NCBI GenBank assembly: GCA_964389995.1
Contig: CAYMGN010000002.1
Coordinates: forward strand, 1-33,368
Length of the DNA: 33,368 nt
Direction: 5' to 3'
DNA from: an uncultured Candidatus Peribacteria bacterium
GTDB taxonomy: Bacteria > Patescibacteriota > Gracilibacteria > UBA1369 > LOWO2-01-FULL-3
Every line of letters begins with the position of its first letter. Position 1 is the first letter of the stretch. The position numbers were made by a program, and so were the translations under genes. The notes below the pieces were generated by a model that did not search any database, was not told where the DNA came from, and was given only the letters and a program-made list of their open reading frames with translations. Shown here piece after piece: positions 1,327-16,062 of this stretch.

Positions 1327-1692
1327 TCAACCGATCAAGCCCTTCACCCGCTGTGCCAACTCTTTAGGAGGCATGTTCAGTTTGACATAGAATTCTTCGG
1401 CGCCGGCGGTGGGGGTCGCTTTTTTGAGTTCGGGGCTGCTGAAATTTGAGAGGATTATTACTTTTGCCTGGGGGAATTTTGCTTTTAAGTCAGTGATGAG
1501 GTCGAGGCCTGAGGTTTTGTTGTCGCCGAGATCAAGATCGAGGATAAATAGGCTTGGATCTTGATCATGGGAGAGATTTTTTACTTCTTCTACTTTTTGT
1601 AAGAGTATCACCTGGTCGGCGATGGTCTCGAGATGCTTTTTGTAGAGCTTTCCCAAGACTGTTTCGTCTTCTACTAAGAAAATTTTTGTCAT
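1327..1692 (-). CDS. single-domain response regulator (CheY/Spo0F-like receiver only)
   Basis: 121 aa. Starts IFLVEDE, has the phospho-acceptor context LFILDLDLGD, and has VIILSN plus a later K. There is no output domain. Its start shares base 1692 with the upstream regulator's stop (ATGA-type overlap). Confidence 0.85.
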   Translation of the reverse strand: MTKIFLVEDETVLGKLYKKHLETIADQVILLQKVEEVKNLSHDQDPSLFILDLDLGDNKTSGLDLITDLKAKFPQAKVIILSNFSSPELKKATPTAGAEEFYVKLNMPPKELAQRVKGLIG

Positions 1693-2378
1693 TATTTCTT
1701 TAATATATAGCCTTCTCCCCTAACTGTACGGATCCATTCTATCCCTTCTGACTCGAGCACTCCCCTTAGCGACTGGACAGCTGACCTGAGGTTGCGATTT
1801 TTGGTCGAGGTTGAATGGTCTCCCCAATAATTCTCTATAAGGTAACTCTTTGTCAATAGGGTTTCCGGATTGTTGATAAATAAAGATAAGAGCCTTTTAT
1901 TTTTAGGGGTGAGAGACTTGAGGGGGTGATTTTTATAAAGGAATTGATTTTTTTTTGGCTCGTAGACGAGGCTGGAATAGCTAGTTTCTTGGCTTTTTGC
2001 TTGAGGTTTTGGTGCTCTGCCCCATCTTTTAACCCTAATGGAGAGCTCCCGAGCATTGTAGGGCTTGGATATATAGTCGTATGCACCTAATTCAAAAGCC
2101 CTTTCGAGATATTTGATCGAAGTACAACAGGTGACAAAAATTATCGGAATGTCTACGGATCTTTCTTTCATCTGTTTGCAAAGCTCCAAGCCGTCTAAAC
2201 TGTCTGCGCCAAGCATGATATCGATGAGGGCGATGTGATAATCTTTATTGAGTAGCTTACCCCAACTTTCCTCATAGTTCGTGGCAATCGATACGAAACA
2301 GTGGCTAAATGAGTCCTCAATAATTTTTTTCAAAGACTGGGCCACCAGGAGCTCGTCTTCGACGATTAATACGTTCAT
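1692..2378 (-). CDS. OmpR/PhoB-family response regulator (receiver + winged helix)
   Basis: Receiver motifs: NVLIVEDE, IALIDIMLG, IPIIFVT, DYISKP. The C-terminal winged-helix signature is LTPKNKRLLSLF...IRTVRGEGYIL. Confidence 0.9.
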   Translation of the reverse strand: MNVLIVEDELLVAQSLKKIIEDSFSHCFVSIATNYEESWGKLLNKDYHIALIDIMLGADSLDGLELCKQMKERSVDIPIIFVTCCTSIKYLERAFELGAYDYISKPYNARELSIRVKRWGRAPKPQAKSQETSYSSLVYEPKKNQFLYKNHPLKSLTPKNKRLLSLFINNPETLLTKSYLIENYWGDHSTSTKNRNLRSAVQSLRGVLESEGIEWIRTVRGEGYILKK

Positions 2379-2457
2379 TTATGAAAAATTTATGACAACT
2401 CTTTGGTATATTATTGATTTTGTTTTAATTTATAAAGGAGTGCGTTAGAATTCTGCC

Positions 2458-3015
2458 ATGATTGAAAATAAGGATCACCTGCAGCATTTTTTATTTAATA
2501 TTTTGACGATATTAAATTCTTACGTTGCTGATTTAGGAGATTCGGAGGATAAAGAGACAATCACTAACCTGATCCAAGCGGTAGTCTTGATAGTGGCTCA
2601 TGAGGATTTTTTGCTCGATAGAAAGACAAAAATCGTGGCTGAGGAGTTTCAGATCGGAGAATTACTAGAACTCTTAGTAGATATCTATGGCAAAGAATCT
2701 GTAAAAGTTAATTATGCCAATAAAGATCAAAAAATCAAAATCGGAAAGTATTATTTCTGGGAAGCCTTGAAACAGCTTGTGGCTTGCTTACTGCGCCATA
2801 ATGAAAGTATAGAAATAAAGTATAGCGATCATCAGCTGCATATTGCCGCAAAAGTACCTGAGTCCGCTATGAATACAGAGGCTGAGCTTTCTAAAATTCT
2901 CAAAACGAGCTTAGCTTTGGATATGACTTTTCAATGTTGTGTGGCTTTGACCATTTTCAAGAAAATTGCCAAAGGGCTGGAAGTGAAAAATGATAAAGTT
3001 GTCATTTTTTTGTAA
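2458..3015 (+). CDS. histidine-kinase-core-like protein with degenerate ATP-binding boxes (possible Spo0B/ChpT-like phosphotransferase or pseudokinase)
   Basis: 185 aa. A two-helix N-terminus carries His residues (DHLQHFLFNILTILNSY; ITNLIQAVVLIVAHEDF). It is followed by a CA-like layout (EFQIGELLELLVDIYG ... EALKQLVACLLRH ... IEIKYSDHQLHIAAKV ... VVIFL) but has no N, DxGxG or GxGxG boxes. Confidence 0.4.
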   Translation: MIENKDHLQHFLFNILTILNSYVADLGDSEDKETITNLIQAVVLIVAHEDFLLDRKTKIVAEEFQIGELLELLVDIYGKESVKVNYANKDQKIKIGKYYFWEALKQLVACLLRHNESIEIKYSDHQLHIAAKVPESAMNTEAELSKILKTSLALDMTFQCCVALTIFKKIAKGLEVKNDKVVIFL

Positions 3016-3025
3016 TACCTATATG

Positions 3026-3060
3026 TAAATAACTTTATTAGGATGTTGTAAAGTTATTTA
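3026..3060. promoter_or_regulatory. perfect 12-bp inverted repeat (TAAATAACTTTA-N11-TAAAGTTATTTA) just upstream of the soluble kinase gene
   Basis: Arms at 3026-3037 and 3049-3060 are exact reverse complements. The element lies in the 52-bp gap between genes 2458-3015 and 3068-3997. Confidence 0.35.
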
Positions 3061-3067
3061 TGATGAG

Positions 3068-3997
3068 ATGTTAGAATTGAATAAAACAACTGACCCTACT
3101 GAACTTTCGTCTGAAAGCAATGAATTTGTGCATGATCTGCGCAATTTGATGGGGCTGATACAGTTTGTGTTTAACGTGCATGGATCCGAACTTGATGGTG
3201 TGCCGAGACTTAAAGCCTTGAAAGAAAAATATGATGATATTTGTGATTTGATCAGGGAAACTAATGCGGGGCCGAGTTTGAGACTGGCGGCGCTGGCTAT
3301 TGTCCAAGAAGCAAATGTCATCTGCCACGAATTAGATGAAATCATGCTAGAAATAGTGGAAACAAGAGAAACTGATTTAAGAGGACATGAGATTGTAGTG
3401 AGATGTCTGAAGTATTTTAGAGAAACACTTGAGGCTTATAAGGATGAGAAAGAAAATGTGGCGGAGATAGCCTGCTCTTCTTTTCTTGAATGTTTTACCA
3501 AGTGTTTGAGAAACTACTTTGAGTATCAAGGTATCACGCTTTCTTTTCGAGATTTTACAGATGGAGAATTAACAACGATCTCGATGCCGGAGCTGGCATT
3601 GTTTAATATCATTTTAGAATTAGTGAGGAATGCTGCTGACTCTATCGAATTAGCGGAGATAGGTGACGGGATGGTGGAAATTGAGCTGAGAAGAGCTTCA
3701 GGGGATTTTGCTCTGCCTGGAGTGTCAGTTTTGATCAGAGACAATGGCCACGGGATCAGTAATGGCTTTGAAGACTATATTTTTAAACGAGGAGCTACCA
3801 CTAAATTAATGGGTACTGGTAAAGGCCTAGCAATGATCAGAGATATTCTCAATAAGTATGGAGGGCAAATTAGCTTGATCTCTAATTCACGACGGGGAGC
3901 TGTTTTTGAAATATTCTTTTTGCAACCAGATGACGTTGAAAATCTAATGACTGATTGTAACGAAGTGATGCTATCTATGATTGCTGAGGAGGAGTGA
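3068..3997 (+). CDS. cytoplasmic sensor histidine kinase (no transmembrane segments)
   Basis: H-box FVHDLRNLMGLI, N-box ILELVRNAADS, G1 IRDNGHGI, and G2 GTGKGLAMIRDILNKYGGQISL followed by GAVFEIFF. Confidence 0.85.
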   Translation: MLELNKTTDPTELSSESNEFVHDLRNLMGLIQFVFNVHGSELDGVPRLKALKEKYDDICDLIRETNAGPSLRLAALAIVQEANVICHELDEIMLEIVETRETDLRGHEIVVRCLKYFRETLEAYKDEKENVAEIACSSFLECFTKCLRNYFEYQGITLSFRDFTDGELTTISMPELALFNIILELVRNAADSIELAEIGDGMVEIELRRASGDFALPGVSVLIRDNGHGISNGFEDYIFKRGATTKLMGTGKGLAMIRDILNKYGGQISLISNSRRGAVFEIFFLQPDDVENLMTDCNEVMLSMIAEEE

Positions 3998-6107
3998 TTT
4001 TTTTTGGGAGGGTAATGATAAATACTGCTCCTTGGTGCTCATTGTCCTCGATGGAGATTTGGCCGCCGTGGGCCTCAATGATTTTTTTGCAGATGAAGAG
4101 CCCCATCCCGATGCCTTTGCCTTTGCCAATGCTAGAATTTCCGGTGGAAAATTTGTTAAAAATTTCGGTTTTTTCTTGGTCAGGGATCCCTCTACCATTG
4201 TCAATGATGCGGATTTCAAGATCTGAGGGAGTTTCAGTTAACTTGAGGGCGATTTTAGCGTGATTTTCCGGTGTGAATTTTGCGGCGTTGGTCAGGAGAT
4301 TGAGGCATACCTGGCGCATTTGGTCGAGATCGATGGATATTTCTCTAATGCTGATATCGGAATGAAAACTAAATGTAAGCCCTTTGCGCTGGGATTGGAG
4401 CTGAAAGCCGTGGAAGATTTTTTGGAAGAAAGCTTCCGGATTAACCGGACTGAGATGGAGATTGATTTTGTTGAGGTCATACTTTTCGACATCGAATAGC
4501 TTTTGGCTGAGATTTTTGAGGGCGTCGAGGGACTCAAGGACTGTTTGTAGTTCTGTTTGGACCTCGGATACGTGTTCGTGACTATCGATGATATCGATCA
4601 ATTGAAACAGCGCGATGCTAAGCGGAGTGCGAAATTCGTGTGAGGTAACGGCAATAAAATCGCTTTGTTGTTTGACCAGTTGTTCGATGTCCTTGATCTT
4701 ATTTTTTAATTCTTGAGTCTTTTGATTGATGATGTTCTTCATAATGTTGTTTTCTTGCTCGAGATTCTGCTTGATGAGGATATTCATCCAGGAAACTTCG
4801 AGATGAGTTTTGACTTTTTTGATTTCATCGATTTCTTCTAATGAATAAGCGGCGCCATCGGATTTTTCGCCGAGGAGAAATAGTCCGATCAACCTGTTTT
4901 CCGTAAAAAGTGGAGTGCAGATTTCGGCTTTGAGCATCTTCATTTTTACGGAGAGTATTTTTTTGAAGGGGTCTGAGAGTTTGAGATATTGGATTTCTTT
5001 CTTCACTAGTAATGGGGTTTTTGAGGTTTTGAGAATTTCAGTGAACTCGTCGTCTTTGTATTGGGGAATATTCATTTCTAGAGTTTGTTTGCGGACAGAA
5101 AAAATTTCGGCGCGGCTGAGATGGAGTTTTTGGATAAAGCTTTCTTCGATCAAGCTTTGGAGGGATTCGTAAGTCTTGCAGTGATAGGCGCGGATGCAGA
5201 CTTCGACCACAGTGTTTTTAAATTCTTGCACTCCCCTACCGGTAAACTTCGGTAAATTTTGAAAAATGATGTAAGTGAGGATAAGGGAAATGACACTGCT
5301 GACGATAAATGAGAGTCTTTCACTCAAAAAAGATTCGGTGAGGGAGATTAATAAAATTTCTGAGGCTAAAAATGCGGTGATGAGGATGAGGTACATCAAG
5401 GCGTTGAGAGCGAGTGTGGAAAACTCGAAAAAGCGGAATTTGCGGATAGCGATAAAGGTGGGGACGCTGAAAAATAACAGTGAGACCACTACTTCTGACT
5501 GGAGGATGAAAATGTTAAATAGAGGCAAAATCACGTTGATAACCATGGCAAAAATATAGAAGGCAAAAAATCCAGTTGCGGCCATGGAGATTTTTTTGCG
5601 ATCGATGCCTTGAGTTTTGATGATCTTGTAGATGGCAATGACGACGGCAATAGCGAGATGAATCAAAATATAAATACCATACAGAGGATGCATGGGACCT
5701 AAAATGTCAGCTACCCAAATGCCGTCTTCGATGATCTGTTCCTCCAAAACCAGAGGTGTAAAAGTGGTGAGGATGAAGAAAAGGGCGTAAAACAATAGCA
5801 GTGGATAGCTAAGCTTTTTGGGCCATTTGAAGGTTTTTTTGGGGAAGAAATAGAAGAATATAGGGACGCAGATGGGGATCAAGGTGGATAAACCATAGGC
5901 CAAGCGGCCAAAAACGAATGAAAGTTGGGGGTAGATGCCGGGCGTAAAAAGTGAAATGTAGAGTGAAAGTGCCCACAAAGAACCAAAGAGACAGAAAAAG
6001 AAAAAGGTCTGATTGCTTCTTTTTTTGTGATTGGCAGAGAGGGTGATGATCCCTAAGAGGAAACTGATCAGTGCGGAAATGCCAAACAGGATGGTTAGAT
6101 AGAGCAT
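3975..6107 (-). CDS. polytopic membrane sensor histidine kinase
   Basis: 710 aa. The N-terminal ~290 aa contain multiple hydrophobic helices, followed by a central GAF-like region. H-box VTSHEFRTPLSIA, N-box LLTNAAKF, G1 IIDNGRGIP, G2 GKGIGMGLFICKKIIEAHGGQISI. Its 3' end overlaps the convergent kinase gene by 23 bp (3975-3997). Confidence 0.9.
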   Translation of the reverse strand: MLYLTILFGISALISFLLGIITLSANHKKRSNQTFFFFCLFGSLWALSLYISLFTPGIYPQLSFVFGRLAYGLSTLIPICVPIFFYFFPKKTFKWPKKLSYPLLLFYALFFILTTFTPLVLEEQIIEDGIWVADILGPMHPLYGIYILIHLAIAVVIAIYKIIKTQGIDRKKISMAATGFFAFYIFAMVINVILPLFNIFILQSEVVVSLLFFSVPTFIAIRKFRFFEFSTLALNALMYLILITAFLASEILLISLTESFLSERLSFIVSSVISLILTYIIFQNLPKFTGRGVQEFKNTVVEVCIRAYHCKTYESLQSLIEESFIQKLHLSRAEIFSVRKQTLEMNIPQYKDDEFTEILKTSKTPLLVKKEIQYLKLSDPFKKILSVKMKMLKAEICTPLFTENRLIGLFLLGEKSDGAAYSLEEIDEIKKVKTHLEVSWMNILIKQNLEQENNIMKNIINQKTQELKNKIKDIEQLVKQQSDFIAVTSHEFRTPLSIALFQLIDIIDSHEHVSEVQTELQTVLESLDALKNLSQKLFDVEKYDLNKINLHLSPVNPEAFFQKIFHGFQLQSQRKGLTFSFHSDISIREISIDLDQMRQVCLNLLTNAAKFTPENHAKIALKLTETPSDLEIRIIDNGRGIPDQEKTEIFNKFSTGNSSIGKGKGIGMGLFICKKIIEAHGGQISIEDNEHQGAVFIITLPKKITPPQQS

Positions 6108-6155: not shown

Positions 6156-6176
6156 TATTTGTCACTATTTTGTCAC
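6156..6176 (-). repeat. tandem direct repeat GTGACAAAATA / GTGACAAATA (minus-strand sense) spanning the stop codon of the SET-fusion gene
   Basis: Plus-strand tatttgtcac (6156-6165) is directly followed by tattttgtcac (6166-6176). The repeat lies 13-33 nt upstream of the candidate -35 for the kinase gene. Confidence 0.6.
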
Positions 6177-7706
6177 TTCCTGAGGTTGTCGGCGAAATTT
6201 TTCCTTAGGTAAGCTGATGAGATCGGCAAAAGTTCTGAGTGAGCCGAGCATGATGGTGTAGTGTTCGCTGAGGGATCCGGGGACTTCGATGAGGCCTGCT
6301 CTCTTGACGATGTTTTGAAATCTGGATCCTTGCTCTGCTTCTCCGATGACGGCGAGGTTGTCCTTGATATCATCGGGGATGGAGTCCATGAAATTTTGCA
6401 ACATGATCGGGAGATAGCCTGTACGGCGGATTTTGGGACTGGTGATGGAGCAATTGTAGAGAAAAACTTGGCCATCGGGAGTGATATCGGGGCCTTGGTA
6501 GCTTTTTGAGGTGTCGATTCTTTCCTTAATGCTTTGATAAAATTGGTTGAAGTCTCGTTCGTACTGAGGATCTTGAGTGGCGGTATAGGCGTAGGGATGG
6601 CCCCATTCTTCGGAGTGGAAGGCTTCTCGTAAGGTGCGGACATTGCCAAAGCTAATGCCGAGGATTTCGGCTGTGTCTTGATCTCGGAGGAGAGTGACGA
6701 TTGCTTTGTCTAGGAATTTTTGTCTGAGCTTTTCGTGGGTTTTGTCCGGGTCCATTACGAGGACCATTGGCTCCTTACAGCAAGGGCAATCGGGAATCAT
6801 CGGCGAAAAATCGATTACCTCTATGGGGATGTCTTGTCCGCTATTGGCGTAAACGTCTTTTGCTGAGAAGCGCATTCCTTCTGGTTTTGTGCTGTCGCAA
6901 GGGGGGCAGGTGACGTAATTGAGCCAATCATTGCTAAAGGTGAGACGGAAAAAATCGGAGATTTCTCTGATTGCGCTTTCGTCCAGGGGTGAGTAGAGAG
7001 TTTCTATCCTTGCTTTGGGGATTGGTTTTTCTGCTGTTTGCTGGAGAGGATCGGTATCTTCCTTGATCCAGTTGAGAGTGTATGGGGCGTATTCTGAGCG
7101 GATATGCTCTGGCAAATCTCGATAGGCCGTTACTGTGCCTCGACAACGCGGAGAGCCACATTTGCAATCTTGCATCTGCCAGTTGCTGTTTTCGGACATG
7201 GCATAGTCCCAACAGATTTCTTCGCCGGGTTTGATTTCGCGTCTGGTGACGATGGCTACGGCATTATCTGGCAGTCCTGGGACACGGTAGCCATCGACTA
7301 AGCCGCAGTTGGGGTCGCAGGAATGATTGATTTGTTCTGCGAGGCCATGGTGGAGGGCGAAGCTGTCAGGGCCATTTTGTACTACCCGGTCTATGAGCCA
7401 GGTCCAGCCCAGGGATTGAATGTCTTCTGCTCTAAATGTTTGGCCGTACTGGGGATCAAAGGCGGCGATTAATTCTCCGGGGTTGATTTTTTCGTGGGCG
7501 AAGACGCCGATGCCTTTTTCTGGACTTTGTTTGATGGTAGCTTTGGGGTTATCGAGGGGGTGGGGGCGGTATTCGATGTGACTAGAGTTTAGCTGCATCA
7601 GTAAGCGTTGGCTGAGGAGAGCAGATAAATTCTTAGTTTCTTCATCGTTTCGCTCGGATGCGGATTCTGATGATCTTTCAACTTCGTAAGTTGTTTGTTC
7701 TTCCAT
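6165..7706 (-). CDS. SET-domain methyltransferase fused to a ~280-aa C-terminal GNAT-like domain carrying a four-Cys cluster
   Basis: SET signatures: GIGVFA, INHSCDPNC, EEICWDY, and the post-SET motif CKCGSPRCRG (residues ~57-192, nt ~7131-7538). The C-terminal part (nt ~6168-7004) has CPPC ... CPCC and a GNAT-like strand/helix pattern (VFLYNCSITSPKIRRTGYLPIMLQNF ... FQNIVKRAGLIEV). Confidence 0.8.
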   Translation of the reverse strand: MEEQTTYEVERSSESASERNDEETKNLSALLSQRLLMQLNSSHIEYRPHPLDNPKATIKQSPEKGIGVFAHEKINPGELIAAFDPQYGQTFRAEDIQSLGWTWLIDRVVQNGPDSFALHHGLAEQINHSCDPNCGLVDGYRVPGLPDNAVAIVTRREIKPGEEICWDYAMSENSNWQMQDCKCGSPRCRGTVTAYRDLPEHIRSEYAPYTLNWIKEDTDPLQQTAEKPIPKARIETLYSPLDESAIREISDFFRLTFSNDWLNYVTCPPCDSTKPEGMRFSAKDVYANSGQDIPIEVIDFSPMIPDCPCCKEPMVLVMDPDKTHEKLRQKFLDKAIVTLLRDQDTAEILGISFGNVRTLREAFHSEEWGHPYAYTATQDPQYERDFNQFYQSIKERIDTSKSYQGPDITPDGQVFLYNCSITSPKIRRTGYLPIMLQNFMDSIPDDIKDNLAVIGEAEQGSRFQNIVKRAGLIEVPGSLSEHYTIMLGSLRTFADLISLPKEKFRRQPQEVTK

Positions 7707-7717
7707 AATAAATTTGG

Positions 7718-8959
7718 TTAAGTGTATGCGATGATTTGTGGGGGCTCAATGGAGTTGAAATTGCTGCGCTGGCTGTGCATGTAGGCGCCGGCATTACGGA
7801 TGCGGAGTTTGTGTTTTTTGGGGTCAATGTTGCTGCTGAGAGTGACAATACCGAGATGGTCGCCGGAGTCACAGGTGGGGCCGTAAAGTTTGTAGGGAAT
7901 AGCAGGAGCCTCTTGTTGGCCATGAGCGTCTAAAACTTCGATGTTGTATTGCCATCCGTGGACGGCATAATCGCTAAACGAACCGAAGACTCCATCGGAG
8001 AGATAGAGGACTTCTTGTCCGTTTCTGGTTTCTTTTGCGAGGATGGGAACGATTAATTCGATGGAATTTGCTACTAGGGCTCGACCGAGTTCGATGATCA
8101 GCTTGTGGTCATTTCTAAGACCATCGGGCAGTCGTCGTTTGAGTTTTCTGAGCGATTGGTTAATCACTTGCATGTACTGACTTAGATCATAGTTTTCATG
8201 TTCGAAATAGCTGACAGGGATGCCGCCGCCGACGTTGATACTGCCTAAAGACGGCGATTTTTCTGCGACGTCGATGATTTTGTCGATGGCGCTGGAGTAG
8301 GTTTGTGGTGATGAATTTTGAGAGCCGGTGTGGACTGAGATCCCTGGGGTTAGCCCTTCGGAAGCAATATAACGAATCATTTTGACGACAGATTCTGGAG
8401 TAGCGCCGTATTTGCTGGAAAGATTGATCCCGGCGGCGGAATTGTTGGTGGCCATTCTGACTGCTATTTCCAGATTTCTGGCTGTGTCGTATGGAGAAAC
8501 AGCAGCGATGATTTTGTTAATTTCGGTTTGAGTTTGAGCGGTAAAATGGTCTACATCATAATCTTCGGAGGCGCGATGAATATCTTTGGCTTTTTTGATC
8601 GGGTGATTAAACAAGATCTTGGCTGCGGGGGCGAGCTTTCTGATGAGGTCAATCTCGCCAAGAGAGGCACAGTCAAAAGCGTCGATGCCTTCTTGATAAA
8701 GAGTTTGGACGATGAGCTCGAGAGGGTTGGCTTTGACGGCGTAGGCGACGAGTGCTCTTTCATCTTCGGGCAAGAATTGTTCCTTATAGAAACGTGCTGT
8801 TTGGCGGAGTTTGTTGAGATCGAGGAAGTAGAAAGGGTCTTCAGCGTTCATTACATCACTGTAAGCTTCCTGAATTGCTTGCTCGCGACCGATGCCCTCG
8901 AGTAATTCTGGGGATTGAGGGTCGTTTTGGAGTTGTGGTTGATAGTCCAATCTAGGCAT
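7718..8959 (-). CDS. fold-type III PLP-dependent ornithine/lysine decarboxylase (Orn/DAP/Arg decarboxylase family)
   Basis: PLP-lysine motif AYAVKAN, then FDCASLGEI, HTGSQ, NVGGGIPVSY and YGPTCDSGD. 413 aa. It lies 11 bp upstream of the SET-fusion gene on the same strand. Confidence 0.85.
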   Translation of the reverse strand: MPRLDYQPQLQNDPQSPELLEGIGREQAIQEAYSDVMNAEDPFYFLDLNKLRQTARFYKEQFLPEDERALVAYAVKANPLELIVQTLYQEGIDAFDCASLGEIDLIRKLAPAAKILFNHPIKKAKDIHRASEDYDVDHFTAQTQTEINKIIAAVSPYDTARNLEIAVRMATNNSAAGINLSSKYGATPESVVKMIRYIASEGLTPGISVHTGSQNSSPQTYSSAIDKIIDVAEKSPSLGSINVGGGIPVSYFEHENYDLSQYMQVINQSLRKLKRRLPDGLRNDHKLIIELGRALVANSIELIVPILAKETRNGQEVLYLSDGVFGSFSDYAVHGWQYNIEVLDAHGQQEAPAIPYKLYGPTCDSGDHLGIVTLSSNIDPKKHKLRIRNAGAYMHSQRSNFNSIEPPQIIAYT

Positions 8960-9000: not shown

Positions 9001-9022
9001 ACTGTCGGAAAACTGTCGGAAA
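9001..9022 (-). repeat. perfect tandem 11-bp direct repeat (plus strand ACTGTCGGAAA x2; minus sense TTTCCGACAGT x2) upstream of the decarboxylase gene
   Basis: Copies at 9001-9011 and 9012-9022 are identical. They lie in the 73-bp gap between the regulator stop (9033) and the decarboxylase start (8959), abutting a weak -35 (TTGGGG, 8996-9001) with a -10 TATCAA (8973-8978) at 17-nt spacing. Confidence 0.7.
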
Positions 9023-9032
9023 ATCAGTGATT

Positions 9033-9722
9033 TTATTCTGGAAGATTGATCTGGTAGCCGACCCCATGTACGGATTGGATGGTTTTATATTCAAAATCGG
9101 AGTCGATTTTTTTTCTTAATCTTTTGATTGTAGAAGGAACGACATTTGAGTGATATCCAGGCTTTGATTTCCAGATTTTTTGGAGAATTTCTTCAGTGGG
9201 GACGGCGTTGCCATGTTGTTCGACCAGAAGTTGGAGGATTTTTGTTTCGCGATTCGAAAGAGTGATGTCTTTACCGGATCTAGTTACTTTATTTTGCTGC
9301 CAGTAAAAGGCGAAATCGCCGATTTTTTCTACTCTTTGGGCGATAGAATAGCGGCGGCTGATGGCATTGATACGAGCCAAAAGTTCGGAATCATTAAAAG
9401 GTTTTGTGAGGTAGTCATCTACGCCTTTATTTAAAAGATTGATTTTGATATCGACCTGACTGATACCGCTAAGGACGAGGATGGGTATATTGATATGCTT
9501 TTTACGGAGGTGGAGGACTAGATTATCTCCCGATCGGCCGAGTAAAATAAGATCCAGTAAAAGTATATCTACTTTAGGAAAATTTGGTTTTTTGATGACG
9601 TCTTCGACTGAGGAGTATTGATTGACTTGATGGCCATGACTTTTCAGGACCTTTTCGAGCCTTTCTGACTGAGACTGATCATCTTCTACTAGAAGTATTT
9701 TCACGATGTCATATTTTATCAA
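9033..9722 (-). CDS. OmpR/PhoB-family response regulator
   Basis: KILLVEDD, ILLLDLILLG, IPILVLSG, DDYLTKP, and the C-terminal winged helix LSNRETKILQLL ... IQSVHGVGYQI. The track start is the TTG at 9722. The GTG at 9704 (VKILLVEDD) is a more typical N-terminus. Confidence 0.9.
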   Translation of the reverse strand: MIKYDIVKILLVEDDQSQSERLEKVLKSHGHQVNQYSSVEDVIKKPNFPKVDILLLDLILLGRSGDNLVLHLRKKHINIPILVLSGISQVDIKINLLNKGVDDYLTKPFNDSELLARINAISRRYSIAQRVEKIGDFAFYWQQNKVTRSGKDITLSNRETKILQLLVEQHGNAVPTEEILQKIWKSKPGYHSNVVPSTIKRLRKKIDSDFEYKTIQSVHGVGYQINLPE

Positions 9723-12758: not shown

Positions 12759-14165
12759 CTAGGCTTCAGTTTGCTGTGAATTGGCATCGGATTTTGAATC
12801 ACTTGCTTTGTTTGATTGCGATTGAGAGCGAGTGATCAGGTCTTTGACATCGATACCGAGGGTCTTGCGTAATCCCTCTAGCATACTGCCAAAACGGGCG
12901 CCGCTGTCAGCTGATGACATGAAGTCCATGAAGTTTTCCGGTTTTTGATCTCCGGTTTGGATGACCTTCATTTCAGCGTCTTCGTAGGCTTTGGCGATGG
13001 CGACTCCGACGTCTTTGTCTTTTTCGATGTATTTCTCGCCGAGTAGGGCCAAGAGACCTTCTTCAGCAAATTTGGAGAGGGCGATGGCCAGTTTTTCTTT
13101 GGCTTCGGCTTCGGCGAGACCTTTTTCGAGGATAGCCTTGGCTTCACCTTGACCGATGGCGGCGGCTTTTTCTCCCAGACCTTTACCAGCTAAGGATTCG
13201 GCTTCTCTCTGACCTTGTGCTTCGCGGATATTTGATTGCTTGATCCCTTCGGCTTCTTCAACCAGGGCTTCGGCTTCGATTCTTTTTTGCTCTACTTCCC
13301 TGACCTTGATCACGGCCATTTCTTTTTCGGTGGTGTTTTTCTTTTCTTCTTGAATGCTTTGGAGAGCTTTTTCTTCGGCGATACCGACTGTCTTTTTGCG
13401 GTCGGCATCACGAGCTTCGGTGGTTTCCTTGGCCACGATCTCTTCGATTTCCGCCTCCTTGCGAGCATTAATTTGAACGATCTTGGCTTCCTTTTCATTG
13501 ACGGCGACTTCTTCTTCGGACTTTCTTTTAATAAATGAGGAATGTTGGCGCATAATGGCAGAAATGATTTGCTCTTCACCATCGTCATCAGAGATATCCA
13601 TGAACTCGATATTGAGGACCTTCACGCCCCAAGCGGAAACTTGAGAACGCACTTCTTCTAAAAATGATTGTCCCAGGATGGAACGTTCGGTCATGATACC
13701 CTCGATCTCATTGGAAGCGAGGATTTTACGGACGGCACCACGGAGTACTTCGAGTAATTCGTTTTCGAGATCGGCAAAACTGGAGACACGTTGAGCGGCT
13801 TTGGCTGATTCACTAGCGTCAATCTGGAAAAAGGCGGTGACATCTACCTTGAAGGGCGCTTTTTTACTATCGTATGCGCGATATTTTTCTAAAGGGAGTT
13901 TAAAAATGGAAACGGGCATTTTTTTGACTTCGACACCGAAAAAAGGAATCCAAGAAGGAACTTTATAATAGACGTTTCCGACACTGGTGTCCTTACCATA
14001 GACCACGGATTCTTTGCGTCTTTGCACTACATGCACTTCATCGGGAGAAATAACTACCCGCCAAATGGCTGCTAGTATAAAAAGAATGACAAGAAAAGAC
14101 CCTCCGGCGATGGATAAAATAATTGTGAGTTCCATGGTAGATTGATAAGTTGGATAGAAAATCAA
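12759..14165 (-). CDS. SPFH/band-7 flotillin-like membrane scaffold protein
   Basis: N-terminal membrane helix (LTIILSIAGGSFLVILFILAAIW), an SPFH core, then a long E/A/K-rich coiled-coil (EAEALVEEAEGIKQ ... AEAEAKEKLA). The track start is a TTG. The ATG at 14135 (MELTII) is the more likely start. Confidence 0.85.
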   Translation of the reverse strand: MIFYPTYQSTMELTIILSIAGGSFLVILFILAAIWRVVISPDEVHVVQRRKESVVYGKDTSVGNVYYKVPSWIPFFGVEVKKMPVSIFKLPLEKYRAYDSKKAPFKVDVTAFFQIDASESAKAAQRVSSFADLENELLEVLRGAVRKILASNEIEGIMTERSILGQSFLEEVRSQVSAWGVKVLNIEFMDISDDDGEEQIISAIMRQHSSFIKRKSEEEVAVNEKEAKIVQINARKEAEIEEIVAKETTEARDADRKKTVGIAEEKALQSIQEEKKNTTEKEMAVIKVREVEQKRIEAEALVEEAEGIKQSNIREAQGQREAESLAGKGLGEKAAAIGQGEAKAILEKGLAEAEAKEKLAIALSKFAEEGLLALLGEKYIEKDKDVGVAIAKAYEDAEMKVIQTGDQKPENFMDFMSSADSGARFGSMLEGLRKTLGIDVKDLITRSQSQSNKASDSKSDANSQQTEA

Positions 14166-15201: not shown

Positions 15202-16062
15202 TTGTTTATGTTAGAAAAAATCCAAGAATTAAAAGTAGAGTTTGAGAAATTGCGTCAGGGTAAAGAATCTTTGTTGCGATTGATTAGTGAAGCGGAGTTG
15301 CCGGAGAGTGTTTATAATTCTAATGCGATCGAAAACTCGACTTTGACGATCAAGGAAACGGAAAAAATCTTGATGGAATTGGAGGTTACGAGGAATGTTT
15401 CATTGAGAGAAGTTTTTGAGGCGAAAAATTTGGCGCGGGTGAGTGAATATATTGCAGAAAAGGCAAAAACTGAGGAGTTGGACTGCGAGCTGATCCTCTT
15501 GCTGCATAAAATGCTAATCACTAATATCGAGGACGAAATTGCCGGGAGATATCGAGAGACGGGAGAATACGTGAGAGTGGGGACCTACATTGAGCCGGCA
15601 CCGGAAAAGGTGGCAGGGATGATTGAGGGGGCGATTATTGAGTATCGCAGCGCTATTGATCAATCTTTCATCAAAAAAATTGCGCGTTTTCATTTAGAAT
15701 TTGAGCATATTCATCCTTTTTTGGATGGCAATGGGCGGATTGGGCGGATTTTGATTAATTTTCAATTATTGAGACTGGGGTTTCCGCCTTTGATCGTGAG
15801 AAATAAAGAAAAGCAGGACTACTATGATTGCTTTAAAGAATACGAAAAAAATGGTGCGACGAAGAGAATGGAAAAAATTTTGACCTTGGCACTTTTAGAG
15901 TCATTTCACAAGAGAATTGCCTATTTGAAGGGGCAAAAAATCATCAAGGTGAGTGAGTATGCAAAAAATGTCGAGCGCTCGCTGCCGGCTTTGCTCAATG
16001 CTGCCAAAAGACAGACGATAGCGGCTTTTAGGGAAAAGAATGTTTGGATGATTGGTGTTTAG
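15202..16062 (+). CDS. Fic-domain protein (AMPylase family) with an N-terminal inhibitory motif and a C-terminal HTH-like tail
   Basis: Fic motif HPFLDGNGRIGR at nt 15712-15747. Inhibitory-type motif SNAIEN, i.e. (S/T)xxxE(G/N), at nt 15319-15336. The C-terminus VSEYAKNVERSLPALLNAAKRQTIAAFREKNVWMI resembles excisionase/MerR-type HTH_17. The likely start is the ATG at 15208. Confidence 0.9.
   Translation: MFMLEKIQELKVEFEKLRQGKESLLRLISEAELPESVYNSNAIENSTLTIKETEKILMELEVTRNVSLREVFEAKNLARVSEYIAEKAKTEELDCELILLLHKMLITNIEDEIAGRYRETGEYVRVGTYIEPAPEKVAGMIEGAIIEYRSAIDQSFIKKIARFHLEFEHIHPFLDGNGRIGRILINFQLLRLGFPPLIVRNKEKQDYYDCFKEYEKNGATKRMEKILTLALLESFHKRIAYLKGQKIIKVSEYAKNVERSLPALLNAAKRQTIAAFREKNVWMIGV

Follow-up and report, generated by a model that had tools for sequence, protein, structure and literature searches.

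To our knowledge, SET domains have been studied almost solely as protein-lysine methyltransferases. The SET domain considered here is encoded in a 33,368-nucleotide stretch of DNA from an uncultured Candidatus Peribacteria bacterium (assembly GCA_964389995.1, contig CAYMGN010000002.1, positions 1 to 33,368), which is referred to as a whole as the window. It belongs to a 513-aa protein, P0001, encoded on the minus strand at 6165..7706 with a TAG stop at 6165-6167. In the same polypeptide, it is followed by a domain with a GNAT fold that represents an unannotated family and is called X below. On balance, P0001 is probably a bifunctional small-amine tailoring enzyme: a diamine made by a decarboxylase would be N-methylated by SET and N-acylated by X, in an operon tied to its own two-component system.

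The best matches of the SET domain are enzymes of the SET1/MLL, NSD, and ASH1L types (7u5v, 2w5y, 4ynm), and the motifs GxG, NHSCxPN, ELx(F/Y)DY, and CxCx4C are common to them and P0001. However, these are eukaryotic chromatin enzymes with protein substrates, whereas P0001 is found in an amine-metabolism context and has a tryptophan at the "switch" position of the catalytic motif, as well as clade-specific motifs. Another described relative is BurB from Burkholderia thailandensis, a SET-domain methionine S-methyltransferase acting on free methionine (PMC12542666; PDB 9l4t, 9l4v). Both structure and sequence searches with P0001 found BurB, and the likeness would be that of a bacterial SET domain modifying a free metabolite in a pathway. 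In contrast to BurB, which is a stand-alone S-methyltransferase, the SET domain of P0001 is fused to X, and N-methylation is expected; its clade also has the Trp switch and the full post-SET zinc motif.

X has the same strand and helix order as arylalkylamine and polyamine N-acetyltransferases (NATs), namely the mosquito aaNAT5b/spermine NAT (5yag), the Tribolium aaNAT (6v3t), and the Drosophila dopamine NAT, which are its top Foldseek matches (E about 2e-5). These known enzymes acylate small amines from acetyl-CoA. However, the level of identity is only 10-13%, and in X, α1 and α2 are separated by a 59-residue zinc-ribbon-like insertion, and β3 and β4 by additional helices. A comparable succession of reactions occurs in the synthesis of hydroxamate siderophores (the DesA decarboxylase, DesB N-hydroxylase, and DesC acyltransferase; IucD/IucB), where lysine or ornithine is decarboxylated, the terminal amine is modified, and a GNAT-like enzyme N-acylates it. 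One relative of the window's SET domain, P0021, is itself an N-monooxygenase-SET fusion. In the proposed SET-X pathway, methylation takes the place of hydroxylation and would yield no hydroxamate to bind iron, and the cassette contains neither a synthetase nor a siderophore transporter. As for gene order, CqsA/CqsS, LuxM/LuxN, and agrBDCA are pairs of signal-synthase and sensor-kinase genes, as is the com operon. The first three resemble the SET-X locus in the close linkage of enzyme genes with those of a polytopic membrane histidine kinase and its regulator; however, the enzymes of the SET-X cassette are unrelated to theirs, and a co-drift test of the cassette, given below, was negative. Literature searches found no description of the SET-X fusion, the X family, or the cassette. 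The abstract of a paper on Haloferax quorum-sensing two-component systems (PMC13464002) showed no evident link to the cassette.

The SET-X fusion and its probable amine-pathway context

The SET-X fusion is genuine and is no artefact of assembly or frameshift, since independent homologues recur in both domain orders. The SET-X order is common to seven independent assemblies, with 31-54% identity to the window protein, or 33-54% in the table of homologues; three homologues have the reversed X-SET order, and X stands alone in one. The open reading frame (ORF) is uninterrupted for all 513 aa under table 11 and has zero in-frame TGA codons. An alternative genetic code was considered and rejected: table 25 leaves the SET-X gene unaltered and TGA is the stop codon for about ten window genes; therefore, table 11 fits. 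The full-length AlphaFold2 model of P0001 has a mean pLDDT of 82.8. The two domains are joined by a partly helical linker (residues ~190-231; 7014..7139, minus strand), with low model confidence at residues 222-226.

The SET core (residues 65-168; 7203..7514, minus strand) matches the Pfam SET family (PF00856) with an E-value of 1.4e-12 and 48.4 bits against a cut-off of 22.4 bits. The motifs GIGVFA (65-70, with GxG at 65-67), NHSCDPNC (127-134, with NHSCDPN at 127-133), EICWDY (163-168, with Trp166 and the catalytic Tyr168), and CKCGSPRC (181-188) are all present. The post-SET motif C181-x-C183-x4-C188 (7143..7166, minus strand), together with C130, corresponds to the canonical post-SET zinc site. 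In an alignment of 11 homologues, GxG, NHSCDPN, E-I-C-W-D-Y, and the post-SET C-x-C-x4-C are kept across the SET-bearing proteins, and the four cysteines C130, C181, C183, and C188 are nearly invariant. A Foldseek search with the full-length model matched MLL1, NSD1, ASH1L, vSET, and BurB (E 7e-9 to 4e-7, probability 1.0). The best sequence match in the PDB is MLL1 (E 2e-10), and BurB is weaker (E 2.9e-6). The preliminary description of this DNA, made from its letters, had placed a complete SET/post-SET signature in the N-terminal half of a single-polypeptide fusion. The signature is confirmed by Pfam, Foldseek, the PDB sequence search, and the motifs, and the fusion by the same and reversed domain orders in independent assemblies; all the motifs it quoted (NHSCDPN, EICWDY, CKCGSPRC, CPPC, and CPCC) are found where it had placed them.

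In canonical SET enzymes, the [F/Y] position of the ELx[F/Y]DY motif is the Phe/Tyr "switch". In P0001, this position is occupied by Trp166 (window 7209-7211), and Trp is present in every X-fused SET homologue. The Trp switch was also found in SET relatives tied to OKR-type decarboxylases, a Lys/Orn N-monooxygenase, and a true GNAT. These relatives linked to amine-pathway domains are P0015, P0016, P0019, P0021, and P0022, and the more distant SET relatives P0012, P0020, and P0026 have Phe or Tyr at the same position. Judging by this distribution, Trp at the switch position may mark SET enzymes that act on small-molecule amines. Other motifs specific to the clade are H-x-L-D-N-P-K (49-55) and D106-x-V-x-Q110.

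The surroundings of the nearest SET relatives are rich in genes of amine metabolism. The gene of the Lys/Orn N-monooxygenase-SET protein P0021 (locus L024) adjoins genes for an Orn/Arg decarboxylase, a deoxyhypusine-synthase-like protein, an arginase-family protein, and an EamA transporter. For the GNAT-SET protein P0022 (L025), from a Dapis cyanobacterium, the gene belongs to a small-molecule cluster that also encodes an aminotransferase, methyltransferases, and a group-II decarboxylase. P0015 has a degenerate X inside, and its gene directly follows an OKR decarboxylase gene. Locus L007 (7001-8668) contains a split version of the triple fusion P0164 described below, in which an OKR decarboxylase gene overlaps an X-like-SET gene; no kinase is located nearby.

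Fusion partners of X were counted in 40 long X-containing proteins. SET is fused to X in 12 of them, a class-I (Rossmann-fold) methyltransferase in about nine, and a fold-III Orn/diaminopimelate (DAP)/Arg decarboxylase in four. One protein, P0164 (943 aa), unites three domains, an OKR-type decarboxylase, X, and SET, and others are X-X tandems. The same partners are found as neighbouring genes. The order decarboxylase-(SET)X-seven-transmembrane (7TM) histidine kinase is present in the window and in L001, L003, L005, L006, L009, L014, L015, L017, and L019. L022 and L023 are variants in which SET is replaced by a separate gene for a class-I methyltransferase beside X. The named genomes carrying relatives are those of Peribacteria, Peregrinibacteria, "Altimarinota", and Patescibacteria metagenome-assembled genomes.

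All this points to a small-amine pathway, because two unrelated methyltransferase folds (SET and class I) swap beside X, because X is joined to, or lies next to, decarboxylases from several Pfam families, and because P0164 unites decarboxylase, X, and SET in one protein. The position of the nearest SET relatives among amine-pathway genes (L024, L025, and L007) argues for the same reading.

In the window, a fold-III pyridoxal-phosphate decarboxylase of 413 aa is encoded upstream of the fusion (7718..8959, minus strand), 11 nt from the SET-X start. It matches PF02784 (E 1.6e-34) and PF00278 (E 3.5e-9). Among solved structures, it is nearest to the lysine/ornithine decarboxylases of Vibrio and Selenomonas (2plj, E 2.4e-36, and 5gjm, E 4e-34), which rank ahead of eukaryotic ornithine decarboxylases and diaminopimelate decarboxylases in the PDB search, and its score is below the lysA equivalog cut-off (154 vs 297.9 bits). 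This is the only fold-III decarboxylase gene in the genome (1.39 Mb, 92% complete), which also encodes an S-adenosylmethionine (SAM) synthetase.

We propose the following pathway, all steps of which are drawn from context. The co-transcribed decarboxylase would turn lysine or ornithine into cadaverine or putrescine, diamines that resemble the lysine side chain. SET, in which the SAM-binding and catalytic motifs are intact, would N-methylate one amino group using SAM, and X would acylate an amino group, probably with acetyl, using acyl-CoA as the donor. For the latter reaction, X has a loop equivalent to GNAT motif A and a zinc-ribbon-like insertion at the place of the GNAT acceptor-binding region. 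A diamine both methylated and acylated on nitrogen, in either order, would result. The block comprises an OmpR-type regulator, the decarboxylase, SET-X, and a 7TM histidine kinase. Given that the enzyme genes are located inside a two-component block with 11-bp repeats before the decarboxylase gene, the sensor system probably controls production or receives feedback from it.

The preliminary description had suggested a dual amine-modifying enzyme, combining a lysine methyltransferase with an acyltransferase. The dual function survives as an idea, but from the context its target is more likely to be a decarboxylase-derived diamine than a protein lysine. If so, a SET clade recognisable by its Trp switch and wired into diamine metabolism would extend SET chemistry past the single BurB precedent. 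The decarboxylase-(methyltransferase)-X-kinase module would also offer a directly testable way to reach a new metabolite derived from polyamines, in bacteria that are unculturable alone.

Domain X and its cysteine insertion

Domain X comprises residues 232-497 (6216..7013, minus strand). Residues ~222-513 gave no sequence match in Pfam, NCBIfam, or the PDB. The AlphaFold2 model of X alone has a pLDDT of 91.2 and a pTM of 0.88, and its elements are arranged in the order β1-α1-[insertion]-α2-β2-β3-β4-α3-β5-α4-β6-β7. All 50 top Foldseek matches of this model in the PDB are GNAT-superfamily enzymes (E 1.7e-5 to 6e-4, probability 1.0). The leading ones are insect arylalkylamine/spermine N-acetyltransferases (5yag, 6v3t, and 4fd6); further matches include NAT10/TmcA, Naa60, NatD, puromycin N-acetyltransferase, and the bacterial toxin 7byy. 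The target-normalised TM is 0.5-0.6 against stand-alone GNAT chains.

The helix, strands, beta4/P-loop-like segment, and late helix that the preliminary description had picked out coincide with elements of the model. The first, AIREISDFFRLTF, is helix α1 (243-260); IVTLLRDQDTAEILGISFG forms strands β2-β3 (335-358); VFLYNCSITSPKIRRTGYLPIMLQNF comprises β4, the following loop, and α3 (413-442); and FQNIVKRAGLIEV comprises α4 and β6 (462-475). Thus, the GNAT-like nature of the C-terminal half stands as far as the fold is concerned, and it has no counterpart in the sequence models of Pfam and NCBIfam.

A search of the full representative library found 152 clusters related to X. Weak Pfam GNAT matches were obtained for 13 of 82 stand-alone X relatives, seven to Acetyltransf_7 (best E 1.8e-4) and six to Acetyltransf_1 (best E 2.1e-5). 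The comparison of the X profile with the single true GNAT-SET protein, P0022, by hhalign was not significant, and homologue searches with the C-terminal half alone or with alignment A2 gave nothing useful. As the window protein itself has no GNAT model match and only these 13 relatives match weakly, X counts as a new divergent family. By its modelled structure, X is a divergent, unannotated family with the GNAT fold, standing apart from the existing GNAT sequence models.

The β4-α3 loop of X, P424-K-I-R427-R-T-G430-Y-L (6411..6437, minus strand), takes the position of GNAT motif A, Q/R-x-x-G-x-G/A, with the last G/A missing. When 121 X domains were compared, the first position of the motif (427) was found to be R in 92 and Q in 13; G428 is present in 71 and G430 in 58. 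Outside the motif, N418 in β4 (109 domains) and E456 in β5 (108 domains), as well as W368, Y374, and F257, are conserved at a level of about 90%. The most conserved residues, F257, E367-W368, Y374, R384, N418-C419, and E456, are specific to the family.

In GNATs, the α1-α2 region contributes to acceptor binding. In P0001, this region is enlarged by an insertion of residues 261-319 (6750..6926, minus strand) with the four-cysteine site C267-x2-C270 ... C307-x2-C310, formed by CPPC (267-270) and CPCC (307-310); C309 is not conserved. Among the 121 X domains, the tetrad is present or absent almost as a unit: 52 domains have all four cysteines, 63 have none, and six have a partial set. In the 63 Cys-free domains, the cysteines are replaced with Tyr/Phe, a variable residue, His, and Thr. 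Weak matches to Zn_ribbon families of Pfam were obtained for eight relatives. Because the four cysteines covary, the tetrad fits a predicted structural zinc site of the zinc-ribbon type. The four-cysteine insertion of this type that the preliminary description had proposed therefore agrees with the sequences, in which both CxxC knuckles covary. With about 150 sequence clusters, X makes up a GNAT-fold family that lacks annotation, and the predicted zinc ribbon in its acceptor-binding region is optional.

X-X tandem proteins (L020, P0043, P0049, P0058, P0067, and P0087) show a different arrangement of the two copies. The N-terminal copy keeps the four cysteines and is otherwise degenerate, and the C-terminal copy is without them. 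In this respect, they resemble tandem GNATs having one inactive half.

The adjacent sensor kinase and alternative readings

The gene following SET-X after 57 nt encodes a 710-aa histidine kinase with a HisKA_7TM membrane sensor (3975..6107, minus strand). An OmpR-type response regulator (9033..9722, minus strand) heads the co-directional block, with a promoter-like site upstream of it at 9816-9788 that scores 10/12. No convincing terminators were found inside the regulator-decarboxylase-SET-X-kinase block. A perfect tandem 11-bp repeat, TTTTCCGACAG x2, lies upstream of the decarboxylase gene (9001..9022, minus strand). Similarly, 11-bp-phased CGAC(A) repeats precede the decarboxylase gene in L001, L003, and L006, and other 11-bp tandems were found in L005 and L014. 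These repeats are candidate sites of an OmpR-type regulator. A second, imperfect tandem repeat, GTGACAAAATA / GTGACAAATAG, spans the SET-X stop upstream of the kinase start (6156..6176, minus strand). It is followed, just before the kinase start, by TTGACT-N17-TACTCT, a possible internal promoter.

A 7TM histidine kinase follows X in 16 of the 17 loci with readable downstream sequence. Besides the loci with the full gene order, it comes directly after X in L013, L021, the X-X tandem of L020, and the tail of L016. Full-length orthologues of the window's kinase are found at the related loci (E 1e-51 to 1e-197). The preliminary description makes no mention of this linkage. The X-kinase linkage is solid as synteny; it could mean operon regulation, product feedback, or a synthase-receptor pair. 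The last of these would extend the small-amine reading without contradicting it: the N-methyl-N-acyl diamine, diffusible or membrane-active, would be the autoinducer-like ligand of the adjacent 7TM kinase.

We regard such a signal-receptor pair as possible but doubtful. The linkage holds even for the distant X-X tandem and X-alone versions, the kinase is kept over its full length, and the enzyme genes lie between the regulator and the kinase in one co-directional block free of convincing terminators, which all suit a signalling role. The tandem 11-bp repeats of several loci would fit autoregulation of the OmpR type, and the interchangeable methyltransferases resemble signal diversification. 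The cassette is also patchy, like an accessory module, X being present in 2 of 401 sampled genomes of the window's phylum. However, the adjacency is explained equally well by a kinase that merely regulates the operon, and the relatives in L007, L024, and L025 are without a kinase. No exporter is conserved in the cassette, and a trimethylated product could not cross the membrane by diffusion. The co-drift test in ten loci gave Spearman rho of 0.16 for the identity of X against that of the membrane half of the kinase and 0.18 against its catalytic core; such a test has little power at identities of 25-35%, and its result is taken as no support for ligand-receptor pairing. In the same ten loci, the identity of the decarboxylase tracks the membrane half (rho 0.78) more than the core (rho 0.49), which may be due to chance. 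We know of no ligand of the HisKA_7TM sensor class, and none was found in two papers mentioning this sensor; the module may lead to one. If the product were the signal, the cassette would be a self-contained signalling circuit in Peregrinibacteria-type bacteria of the candidate phyla radiation, in which the kinase would sense the product, a hitherto undescribed diamine, and would autoregulate the operon through the OmpR-type regulator and the repeats. Swapped or dropped methyltransferases (SET, class I, or none) would then produce different signal "dialects", and the SET enzymes with the Trp switch would form a family devoted to the N-methylation of small-molecule amines.

Several observations weigh against the small-amine reading itself. 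The SET domain is closest in both sequence and fold to histone lysine methyltransferases. For the window protein, no match to a sequence model of the GNAT clan of Pfam (CL0257) was obtained up to E = 1; its motif A, R427-R-T-G430-Y-L, is without the final G/A of Q/R-x-x-G-x-G/A; and the rank of Foldseek matches inside the GNAT superfamily says little on the substrate. For the decarboxylase, we infer lysine or ornithine as the substrate only from its nearest solved relatives. Locus L004 has two ATP-grasp genes where the decarboxylase would be, and L021 has no decarboxylase nearby. Some X loci are thus without a decarboxylase; therefore, the amine need not come from a dedicated one.

The similarity of SET to histone lysine methyltransferases is what would be expected of a protein modifier, in which SET methylates and X acetylates lysines or N-termini, e.g., of the kinase, the regulator, a surface protein, or a host-directed protein. 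Naa60, NatD, and the toxin 7byy among the GNAT matches, and the constant adjacency of a kinase, would suit a modifier of this kind acting on signalling proteins. Nevertheless, we consider it improbable, as it leaves unexplained the repeated fusion or adjacency of decarboxylases of several Pfam families (including the triple fusion), the polyamine-gene neighbourhoods of the SET relatives, and the replacement of SET by class-I methyltransferases. It can also be asked whether X has kept the GNAT fold without being an acyl-CoA N-acyltransferase, and is instead a LuxI/FeeM-like acyl-ACP synthase, an aminoacyl-tRNA-dependent transferase, a decarboxylating GNAT, or a non-catalytic ligand-binding module. 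The 50 top Foldseek matches include no structure of LuxI or FeeM, and the LuxI (PF00765) and FeeM-type (PF21926) families are absent from the 25 commonest of the 63 Pfam families matched by family members. The R/Q alternation at motif A and the weak Acetyltransf_1/_7 matches favour an ordinary CoA site. Set against the missing model match and the incomplete motif A of the window protein, and the family-specific character of the most conserved residues, these results leave such a departure with little probability. A diamine-tailoring function of P0001 remains the preferred reading of the locus.

Other features of the window

A second signalling cluster is located at 1327-3997. It comprises a 121-aa ORF (1327-1692), an OmpR-type regulator, a 185-aa protein without a Pfam match, and a soluble histidine kinase. 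Counting the SET-X block as well, two-component genes are densely grouped for a genome of 1.4 Mb. A gene of the Fic/DOC family (15202-16062) is located downstream of an SPFH/Band-7 gene and the gene of a 312-aa protein without a Pfam match.

The GC skew over 1-33368 indicates an unusually strong strand asymmetry. It is positive in 32 of the 33 1-kb windows, with values from ~0.1 to 0.47, regardless of gene orientation, and is -0.01 at 13001-14000.

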